Below the pieces are notes generated by a model. It was not told the DNA's origin. It saw only the letters and a program-made list of their open reading frames with translations, and ran no database searches. Positions 26,066-28,035 of a stretch of DNA of 64,000 nucleotides are shown in pieces (within the stretch, counting starts at the first letter, position 1; the number at the start of each line of letters is the position of its first letter). Position numbers and translations under genes: made by a program. Origin of the DNA: Escherichia coli (GTDB lineage Bacteria > Pseudomonadota > Gammaproteobacteria > Enterobacterales > Enterobacteriaceae); assembly GCF_016026235.1 (NCBI RefSeq), contig NZ_CP065613.1. One strand, written 5' to 3'.

Positions 26066-26920
26066 ATGGTACTGATGATCGTCAGCGGACGTTCAGGTTC
26101 AGGTAAATCTGTCGCCCTGCGTGCGCTGGAAGATATGGGTTTTTACTGCGTGGATAACCTTCCCGTAGTGTTGTTACCCGATCTGGCTCGAACCCTGGCC
26201 GATCGCGAGATTTCTGCCGCCGTCAGCATTGATGTTCGTAATATGCCGGAGTCACCAGAAATATTCGAACAGGCGATGAGTAACCTGCCTGACGCTTTCT
26301 CACCGCAACTCCTGTTCCTGGATGCCGACCGTAATACCTTAATTCGTCGTTACAGTGACACGCGCCGACTGCATCCGCTTTCCAGCAAAAACCTGTCGCT
26401 GGAAAGTGCTATCGACAAAGAAAGCGATCTGCTGGAGCCTCTGCGTTCGCGAGCGGATCTGATTGTCGATACCTCAGAAATGTCCGTTCACGAGCTGGCA
26501 GAAATGCTGCGTACCCGTCTGCTGGGTAAACGTGAACGCGAACTGACCATGGTCTTTGAGTCTTTCGGCTTCAAACACGGTATCCCTATCGATGCAGATT
26601 ACGTCTTTGACGTGCGCTTCTTGCCGAACCCGCACTGGGATCCGAAACTGCGTCCAATGACAGGTCTTGATAAGCCTGTCGCCGCGTTCCTCGACCGCCA
26701 CACAGAAGTACACAATTTTATCTACCAGACGCGAAGCTATCTTGAGCTATGGTTACCTATGCTGGAAACCAACAACCGTAGCTACCTGACGGTCGCCATT
26801 GGTTGTACCGGCGGGAAGCACCGTTCGGTGTATATTGCAGAGCAACTGGCTGACTACTTCCGCTCGCGCGGTAAAAACGTCCAGTCACGCCATCGTACGC
26901 TGGAAAAACGTAAACCATGA
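26066..26920 (+). CDS. rapZ: RNase adaptor protein RapZ (YhbJ)
   Basis: ORF track 284 aa, [33 protein letters not shown]..., Walker A. Confidence 0.95.
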
Positions 26921-27189
26921 CCGTCAAGCAAACTGTTGAAATCACAAACAAGCTGGGCATGCATGCCCGGCCTGCAATGAAGCTGTTTGAATTAATGCAG
27001 GGTTTTGACGCTGAAGTGCTGTTACGTAATGACGAAGGCACCGAGGCTGAAGCCAACAGCGTTATTGCGCTGCTGATGTTGGATTCTGCCAAAGGGCGGC
27101 AGATTGAAGTTGAAGCGACCGGTCCACAGGAAGAGGAAGCACTGGCCGCCGTTATCGCCCTCTTTAATTCTGGTTTTGATGAAGATTAA
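26917..27189 (+). CDS. npr: Nitrogen-related phosphocarrier protein NPr (PtsO)
   Basis: ORF track 90 aa, [26 protein letters not shown]..., HPr-like; ATGA overlap with rapZ. Confidence 0.94.
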
Positions 27190-27335
27190 TCTTCATCACT
27201 TTGACATACAACTCCCTTCAAACTCCCCCCGACAATAAGAAAATCACGTACTGAAATCGTTCTCAATCAACGTCAATTGTACATTTCGTGCGCTTTTTAC
27301 TTTCAGAAGAACCTTAAGAAAACCTTAAGAAGCAT

Positions 27336-27352
27336 TGTTTAGGTTTCGTTTA
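27336..27352 (+). promoter_or_regulatory. Candidate PhoP box upstream of yrbL
   Basis: tgtttaggtttcgttta matches the (T/G)GTTTA-N5-(T/G)GTTTA direct-repeat consensus, about 50 bp upstream of the yrbL ATG; yrbL is a known PhoP-regulated gene. Confidence 0.5.
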
Positions 27353-27402
27353 AGTTAATCGACCATACTGGAGATCGTCAGAAAATATTTCCAGGAGATG
27401 GC

Positions 27403-28035
27403 ATGATTCGCTTATCTGAACAAAGTCCCCTGGGCACCGGAAGACATCGGAAATGTTATGCGCATCCGGAAGATGCCCAACGCTGTATCAAGATTGTCTA
27501 CCATCGTGGCGATGGTGGCGATAAAGAGATCCGTCGTGAGTTAAAGTACTACGCGCATCTTGGTCGCCGGTTAAAAGACTGGAGTGGAATACCGCGCTAT
27601 CACGGTACCGTTGAGACGGATTGCGGAACCGGTTATGTCTACGATGTGATTGCCGATTTTGACGGCAAGCCCTCCATTACGCTGACCGAATTTGCTGAAC
27701 AATGCCGTTACGAAGAAGACGTTGCACAACTGCGCCAGTTACTGAAACAGCTGAAGCGTTATTTGCAGGATAACCGTATCGTGACGATGTCGCTGAAGCC
27801 GCAGAATATCCTCTGTCACCGCATTAGTGAGTCAGAGGTTATCCCCGTCGTCTGCGACAACATTGGTGAAAGCACATTGATTCCACTGGCGACCTGGTCA
27901 AAGTGGTGTTGTCTGCGTAAGCAAGAGCGGTTGTGGAAACGATTTATCGCCCAACCGGCGCTGGCTATTGCCCTGCAGAAAGATCTGCAACCTCGTGAGA
28001 GCAAAACGCTGGCCCTCGCTTCGCGCGAAGCTTAA
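27403..28035 (+). CDS. yrbL: PhoP-regulated kinase-like protein YrbL
   Basis: ORF track 210 aa, [39 protein letters not shown]... Confidence 0.88.

Follow-up and report, generated by a model that had tools for sequence, protein, structure and literature searches.

We find that the 11-bp tandem repeat in the yrbL promoter of this Escherichia coli O157:H7 chromosome is best read as a PmrA/BasR operator that stands beside a PhoP box and represses the PhoP-activated yrbL promoter, and we put the probability of this reading at about 0.9. The match to the PmrA box, its conservation, its position and the stability of its copy number are observed here, while PmrA binding and repression come from the literature; an operator at yrbL has already been described, and the repeat, to which a preliminary description of this DNA had drawn attention, is not a discovery.

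The window, the whole 64-kb stretch of DNA that was analysed, contains an npr-yrbL intergenic region that is 100% identical to that of O157:H7 chromosomes and that is found in 5425 of 5426 complete E. coli genomes. Around it, the genes run in the order rpoN, hpf, ptsN, rapZ, npr (26917-27189, plus strand) and yrbL (plus strand), followed by mtgA, elbB and arcB, all on the minus strand. The elements of the promoter region are as follows.

27274-27296, no strand assigned: conserved upstream block CAATTGTACATTTCGTGCGCTTT, part of the yrbL promoter region
27310-27320 and 27321-27331: tandem repeat, two units of AACCTTAAGAA, each unit one PmrA half-site plus spacer or flank
27313-27329, best on the minus strand: PmrA/BasR box, CTTAAG-AAAAC-CTTAAG on the plus strand and CTTAAG-GTTTT-CTTAAG (CTTAAGGTTTTCTTAAG) on the minus strand
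27336-27352, plus strand: PhoP box TGTTTAGGTTTCGTTTA (TGTTTA-GGTTT-CGTTTA), direct orientation, overlapping the -35 position; class II, 'architecture I'
27364-27369, plus strand: -10 hexamer CATACT, 11 nt downstream of the PhoP box
27403-28035, plus strand: yrbL coding sequence, ATG at 27403; 'PhoP regulatory network protein YrbL' in RefSeq, PF10707

Much of this layout had been recognised in the preliminary description. The two tandem copies, with CTTAAG inside each, are present in the sequence; a PhoP box with one mismatch follows after 4 bp (GCAT), in an architecture published for Salmonella; and annotation bears out that the downstream gene is yrbL. The -10 element had been put in the right place, at a spacing of about 12 bp from the PhoP box that we correct to 11 bp. 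The repeat was also rightly said to adjoin a response-regulator site, the PhoP box, but what was missed is that the repeat itself is, in all likelihood, a PmrA/BasR box. The starts of the PmrA and PhoP boxes are offset by 23 bp, with a gap of 5-6 bp between the boxes, and 34 nt separate the end of the PmrA box from CATACT. The repeat at 27310-27331 is the only perfect tandem duplication of period 11 or more in the 64-kb window, and it is non-random, since 200 dinucleotide-preserving shuffles give a mean of only 0.02 such duplications per window.

The PmrA box is described as two hexanucleotide repeats separated by five nucleotides, to which a PmrA dimer binds head-to-tail (PMC10570014), and has been defined as a first half-site 'CTTAAG' and a second half-site 'XTTAAT' with five base pairs between them (PMC3973317). 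The yrbL repeat contains CTTAAG-N5-CTTAAG, that is, two xTTAA(G/T) hexamers 5 nt apart with a period of 11 bp, and 27313-27329 is the only occurrence of YTTAAK-N5-YTTAAK in the window, where 0.12 matches are expected. For comparison, the authentic PmrA targets pmrR, eptA and arnB were taken directly from the E. coli K-12 genome and read in the direction of the gene: pmrR has CTTAAG-GTTCA-CTTAAT followed after 10 nt by CATACT, eptA has CTTAAG-GTTGG-CTTAAT, and arnB has CTTAAG-GTTAA-GTTAAT followed after 10 nt by TAAAAT. The arn and pmrR boxes are also contained in published oligonucleotides, an arn oligo and a pmrR primer. The similarity extends beyond the hexamers to the form CTTAAG-GTTnn-xTTAAT, as the yrbL minus strand CTTAAGGTTTTCTTAAG averages 13.7 of 17 identities to these three targets and the plus strand 11.0 of 17; the minus-strand form of the outgroups, CTTAAGGTTTTCTTAAT, averages 14.7 of 17. 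We infer that the yrbL box is read on the minus strand, opposite to the activated promoters, a call that hangs on spacer and flank bases alone because the hexamers are palindromic. A BasR consensus of the form 'TTAAnnTT' found no support in the literature search and is excluded from the evidence.

Two side observations concern the K-12 targets. In the eptA-adiC intergenic region of K-12 MG1655 (L020, 6638-6670), the eptA PmrA box lies within a near-perfect inverted repeat, CCAACCTTAAG-TT-CTTAAGGTTGG, that holds three CTTAAG-type half-sites and shares the 9-mer AACCTTAAG with the yrbL unit. At the pmrR promoter (L020, 3056-3088), the -10 hexamer CATACT stands 10 nt after the PmrA box, and at yrbL a CATACT stands 11 nt after the PhoP box.

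Papers citing Zwir et al. 2005 PNAS (PMC2681069, PMC3335776) report that PmrA binds and represses the E. coli yrbL promoter, describe yrbL as 'directly repressed by PmrA', state that the E. coli promoter has both PhoP- and PmrA-binding sites with experimentally verified dual regulation, and place the PmrA box of Salmonella yrbL about 24 bp from its PhoP box (PMC2681069/PMC3335776). A regulator table enters yrbL under 'BasR, PhoP' (PMC4145685), and a 2026 transcriptome of iron-adapted E. coli B reports that yrbL is one of the most strongly reduced genes precisely where the rise of basR, eptA and arn is greatest, which fits repression by BasR. Judged from the sequence match and the reported spacing, 27313-27329 is almost certainly the published PmrA box: gene, species and PhoP-box neighbour are the same, and the spacing is ~23 bp against the ~24 bp reported for Salmonella. 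The passages on yrbL in these published accounts mention neither the exact 11-bp repeat, nor the reverse fit to the consensus, nor the rare one- and three-copy alleles described below.

The neighbouring PhoP box in O157 has a single mismatch to (T/G)GTTTA-N5-(T/G)GTTTA, a C at 27347, where a T in K-12 and most E. coli (TGTTTA) makes the box perfect; the C might slightly weaken PhoP activation in O157. The O157-type 57-mer with C at 27347 is common to about 525 genomes. The direct orientation of the box and its distance from CATACT agree with architecture I, in which a direct box lies 11-12 nt upstream of the -10 hexamer, and Salmonella yrbL is reported as an architecture-I promoter with a single direct PhoP box 11 nt from a -10 CATACT, predicted to be class II (PMC2681069/PMC3335776). 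According to its authors, that PhoP-box submotif classification, including the single box at yrbL, draws on DNase footprinting, and S1 nuclease was used to locate the start site of Salmonella yrbL. In Shigella, yrbL is reported to be 50-fold down in a phoPQ mutant, and PhoP-P to shift the yrbL promoter in EMSA. Consensus scans of 27100-27500 for sigma-70 promoters and terminators found nothing; for the promoter this is expected and uninformative, because the yrbL promoter is activator-dependent and lacks a -35 element. An Rfam scan of the npr-yrbL intergenic region found no RNA element, its sole match, a sub-threshold eukaryotic snoRNA, being noise. One strain, 2009C-3133 (NZ_CP013025.1, ~476-775 of the locus), carries an IS1A inserted at or within the -10 hexamer, where its alignment to the window breaks, so that the PhoP/PmrA-controlled promoter is separated from yrbL.

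Conservation was measured in an alignment of 13 yrbL upstream regions from three genera (Escherichia, Citrobacter and Salmonella), with E. coli O157 and K-12, four cryptic or other Escherichia, E. albertii, four Citrobacter and S. enterica subsp. arizonae among its members.

PmrA box, 27313-27329: 14 of 17 columns invariant, mean pairwise identity 0.94
PhoP box, 27336-27352: 9 of 17 columns invariant, mean pairwise identity 0.84
-10 hexamer, 27364-27369: 6 of 6 columns invariant, mean pairwise identity 1.00
6 bp between the boxes, 27330-27335: 0 of 6 columns invariant, mean pairwise identity 0.47
13 bp upstream of the repeat, 27297-27309: 0 of 13 columns invariant, mean pairwise identity 0.39

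No other extended element of the yrbL promoter is as well conserved as the PmrA box, whose half-site cores carry the phylogenetic footprint of purifying selection. On the minus strand the box reads CTTAAG-GTTTT-CTTAAT in E. albertii and three Citrobacter sp. isolates and TTTAAG-GTTTT-CTTAAT in Salmonella, and the second half-site of C. amalonaticus is CCTAAT. Among further yrbL orthologues, retrieved through protein databases, the arrangement is that of E. coli in S. enterica, a distant Escherichia (81% YrbL identity) and Pluralibacter, and Siccibacter has CTTAAG-AAAAA-CTTAAG; in Cedecea colo and Erwinia sp. CPCC 100877, a member of the same 17-mer family (CTTAAGGTTTTCTTAAG / CTTAAGGTTTTATTAAG) stands in the orientation opposite to E. 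coli and at a different distance, and the Cedecea colo upstream region has no recognisable PhoP box or CATACT.

This distribution also dates the repeat. In most Enterobacteriaceae the 11-nt units already agree with each other at 9-10/11 positions, from which we conclude that the repeat is not a recent duplication; and because the outgroups have the canonical CTTAAG-GTTTT-CTTAAT, the exact 11/11 identity amounts to one or two Escherichia-specific substitutions in an ancient dimer site. Homogenisation by slippage is an unnecessary explanation for the 11/11 identity in E. coli, since one or two point changes suffice, the two routes being indistinguishable. In K-12 and most lineages, the last base of copy 2 is G (A to G), leaving the duplication at 21/22.

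Copy number was surveyed in 5426 complete E. coli genomes by megablast with 38-39-nt junction probes and a word size of 28 nt, at which a two-copy genome cannot seed the one- or three-copy probes because its longest exact match to them is 25-26 nt. The two-copy probe finds at least 5169 of the 5426 genomes; in its 38-nt form it matches 1865 genomes exactly and 3162 with one mismatch (in K-12, the last base of copy 2), and the perfect 11-bp duplication is present in about a third of E. coli genomes. A precise 11-bp deletion was found by the one-copy probe in a single genome, O25b:H4-ST131 strain 4993; the first version of this probe was unable to seed on K-12-type flanks, and a version with K-12 flanks had no match among complete E. 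coli genomes. The three-copy probe finds precise 11-bp insertions in two genomes, O157:H7 strain 493/89 and strain HCP4S3_I4. When a 57-nt query was searched at word size 11, no less than 80% of it was covered in 5424 of 5425 genomes, the sampled full-length rows all being exactly 57 bp and strain 4993 the sole partial match. Exact one-unit changes on three different haplotypes point to independent events, and at ~0.06% of genomes they show that slippage is real but rare and that this is not a contingency locus. The suggestion of the preliminary description that copy-number change tunes or phase-varies the promoter thus finds no support in the survey, with at least 5169 of 5426 genomes at two copies and three exceptions; the comparison across strains that it proposed reveals no phase variation.

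The alternatives differ widely in how well they withstand these data. Contingency loci typically consist of long tracts of short units. Those of Haemophilus and Neisseria, whose repeats set promoter spacer length, are like yrbL in that a tandem repeat in a promoter gains and loses whole units, and the rival reading that grows out of the preliminary description takes the yrbL repeat for a recent tandem duplication whose slippage tunes or phase-varies a PhoP-dependent promoter. The exact one-unit deletion in strain 4993 and the insertions in 493/89 and HCP4S3_I4, independent and on three haplotypes, lend it something, as does the expectation from half-site affinities (PMC10570014) that loss of one unit leaves a single half-site and should weaken PmrA binding. 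We nevertheless consider this very improbable: copy number varies in just 3 of 5426 genomes, so that the repeat is 99.94% fixed in the species where a contingency locus would be frequently polymorphic; two 11-bp units are far from a long tract of many short ones; and the two-unit structure is a protein-binding site conserved between genera, its outgroup units too similar to one another for the duplication to be recent. A chance repeat without function can be set aside almost entirely, as nothing but the small size of the element favours it, against the rarity of such repeats in the shuffled windows and the 14 of 17 positions that stay invariant within an otherwise divergent intergenic region.

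Two further readings concern which protein uses the site. PhoP, in place of PmrA, could bind the repeat as a second PhoP box in reverse orientation, given that the 22-mer of the repeat is 73% complementary to the PhoP-box region, that its minus strand, GGTTTT-CTTAA-GGTTCT, resembles (T/G)GTTTA-N5-(T/G)GTTTA, and that a second upstream box is reported at some PhoP promoters (PMC2681069/PMC3335776). Only 9 of 12 half-site positions match, however, the footprint-based classification as published assigns yrbL a single PhoP box (architecture I), and the invariant bases of the repeat are the TTAAG cores typical of PmrA, not GTTTA; we hold this to be most unlikely. QseB, a PmrA paralogue that recognises PmrA-box DNA and is subject to cross-talk with PmrB, is a better candidate as main or additional user of the site, since the first 11 nt of QseB-related PmrA-box DNA, including two flanking T's (TTCTTAAGGTT), equal the yrbL minus strand. 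The literature credits PmrA/BasR with the regulation of yrbL, and a role for QseB, which strikes us as possible though doubtful, would be compatible with the PmrA explanation rather than exclusive of it.

If the repeat is a PmrA operator, its form has a simple structural explanation. In a phosphorylated PmrA dimer the two DNA-binding domains would sit head-to-tail, each on one of two hexamers spaced by a helical turn, a geometry that makes the site resemble an 11-bp tandem duplication. For Klebsiella PmrA, a Kd of 45 nM is reported for the full site and of 0.13 and 9.3 uM for the half-sites (PMC10570014), consistent with both half-sites being needed for cooperative high-affinity binding. In low Mg2+, PhoP-P on the adjacent PhoP box, in place of a -35 element, would activate yrbL; PmrA-P, arising from Fe3+/Al3+ or mild acid, or via PmrD after PhoP activation, would bind 6 bp upstream of the PhoP box and repress the promoter. 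With PhoP activating and PmrA repressing, yrbL would integrate two envelope-stress signals of opposite sign, and the PhoP/PmrA pair has been published as a 'bi-fan' motif. Repression may work through interference with PhoP binding or with the contact between PhoP and RNA polymerase, which we prefer because PmrA and PhoP footprints of ~25 bp would abut across the 5-6 bp gap; complexes of this family are reported to cover ~25 bp, as in the 25-bp box1 oligonucleotide (PMC3973317). Occlusion of the alpha-CTD is less likely, as the alpha-CTD is reported to be dispensable at mgtA, an architecture-I PhoP promoter (PMC2681069/PMC3335776).

Comparison with other PmrA-controlled promoters is consistent with this repressor role. 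Like yrbL, the activated PmrA boxes of E. coli pmrR, eptA-basRS and arnB and of Salmonella and Klebsiella pbgP have xTTAAk hexamers 5 bp apart, with CTTAAG as first half-site followed by GTT, in a head-to-tail PmrA dimer site. At the activated promoters, which are of class II, the box takes the place of the -35 element, ends ~10 nt before the -10, points towards the gene and activates; the yrbL box, in contrast, stands one site further upstream, 6 bp beyond a PhoP box that occupies the -35, fits best on the opposite strand, and represses. A box that is off the -35 and reversed agrees with the reported repressor role. Its closest likeness is the Salmonella pmrD promoter (Kato et al. 2003), which is reported to have a PhoP box at -35 and a repressing PmrA box upstream, so that both genes are described as sitting in a negative feedback or incoherent loop between the PhoP and PmrA systems. 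The reported distance between the boxes is ~38 bp at pmrD against ~23 bp at yrbL, and the pmrD product feeds back on PmrA itself.

The block at 27274-27296 is the second conserved element upstream of yrbL, invariant at 19 of 23 positions across Escherichia, Citrobacter and Salmonella amid DNA that is about 40% identical, and it is retained at a non-syntenic yrbL homologue of Enterobacter hormaechei that has a PhoP box and no PmrA box. A further regulator of yrbL, as yet undescribed, possibly binds there. Inspection of the block by eye for OmpR- or RstA-like half-sites, a minus-strand mar-box, sigma-54 and CRP sites and a minus-strand promoter gave no convincing fit. The literature found on yrbL and OmpR is one paper, whose passage on yrbL concerns a coding mutation only, yrbL V149L together with envZ in the most peptide-resistant evolved strain (PMC9241736).

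Taken together, the rare alleles, the orthologues and this block allow a wider proposal, which we regard as quite speculative and unlikely to hold in full: that rare gain or loss of a repeat unit is a selectable means of rewiring yrbL, that box orientation and distance set the sign of control, and, separately, that a third regulator acts at 27274-27296. If it were true, PmrA would no longer bind cooperatively at the one-copy allele of ST131 strain 4993, whose yrbL would then escape PmrA repression, and two overlapping registers would be available at the three-copy alleles. The PmrA box is reversed and abuts the PhoP box in Escherichia, Salmonella and Citrobacter, and is forward and further upstream in Cedecea and Erwinia; the sign of regulation may depend on the orientation of the PmrA box and its distance to the PhoP box, and the Cedecea/Erwinia orientation suggests, at the level of sequence, that PmrA control of yrbL has changed in sign or mode from one genus to another.

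As for the product, YrbL (PF10707) shows sub-threshold similarity to protein kinase domains (Pfam E=0.0012), and its weak PDB matches are all kinases. On a gut-metagenome contig, two adjacent convergent yrbL homologues lie beside a Kdo-kinase-family gene (PF06293). These observations hint that YrbL may be a small, kinase-like enzyme controlled by envelope stress. The 420-bp contig NZ_JUET01000135.1, which carries the label Tannerella forsythia ATCC 43037, encodes a fragment with 98% identity to E. coli YrbL; contamination of that assembly with E. coli DNA almost certainly accounts for it.

For E. coli, the survey gives a concrete negative: the yrbL repeat is no phase-variation switch. The operator makes yrbL a dual-input promoter that PhoP activates and PmrA represses, which carries little weight as a discovery. 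More generally, dimer sites of the OmpR/PhoB family have an 11-bp period and can mimic perfect tandem duplications, so that an apparent duplication beside one regulator's site may itself belong to another regulator.
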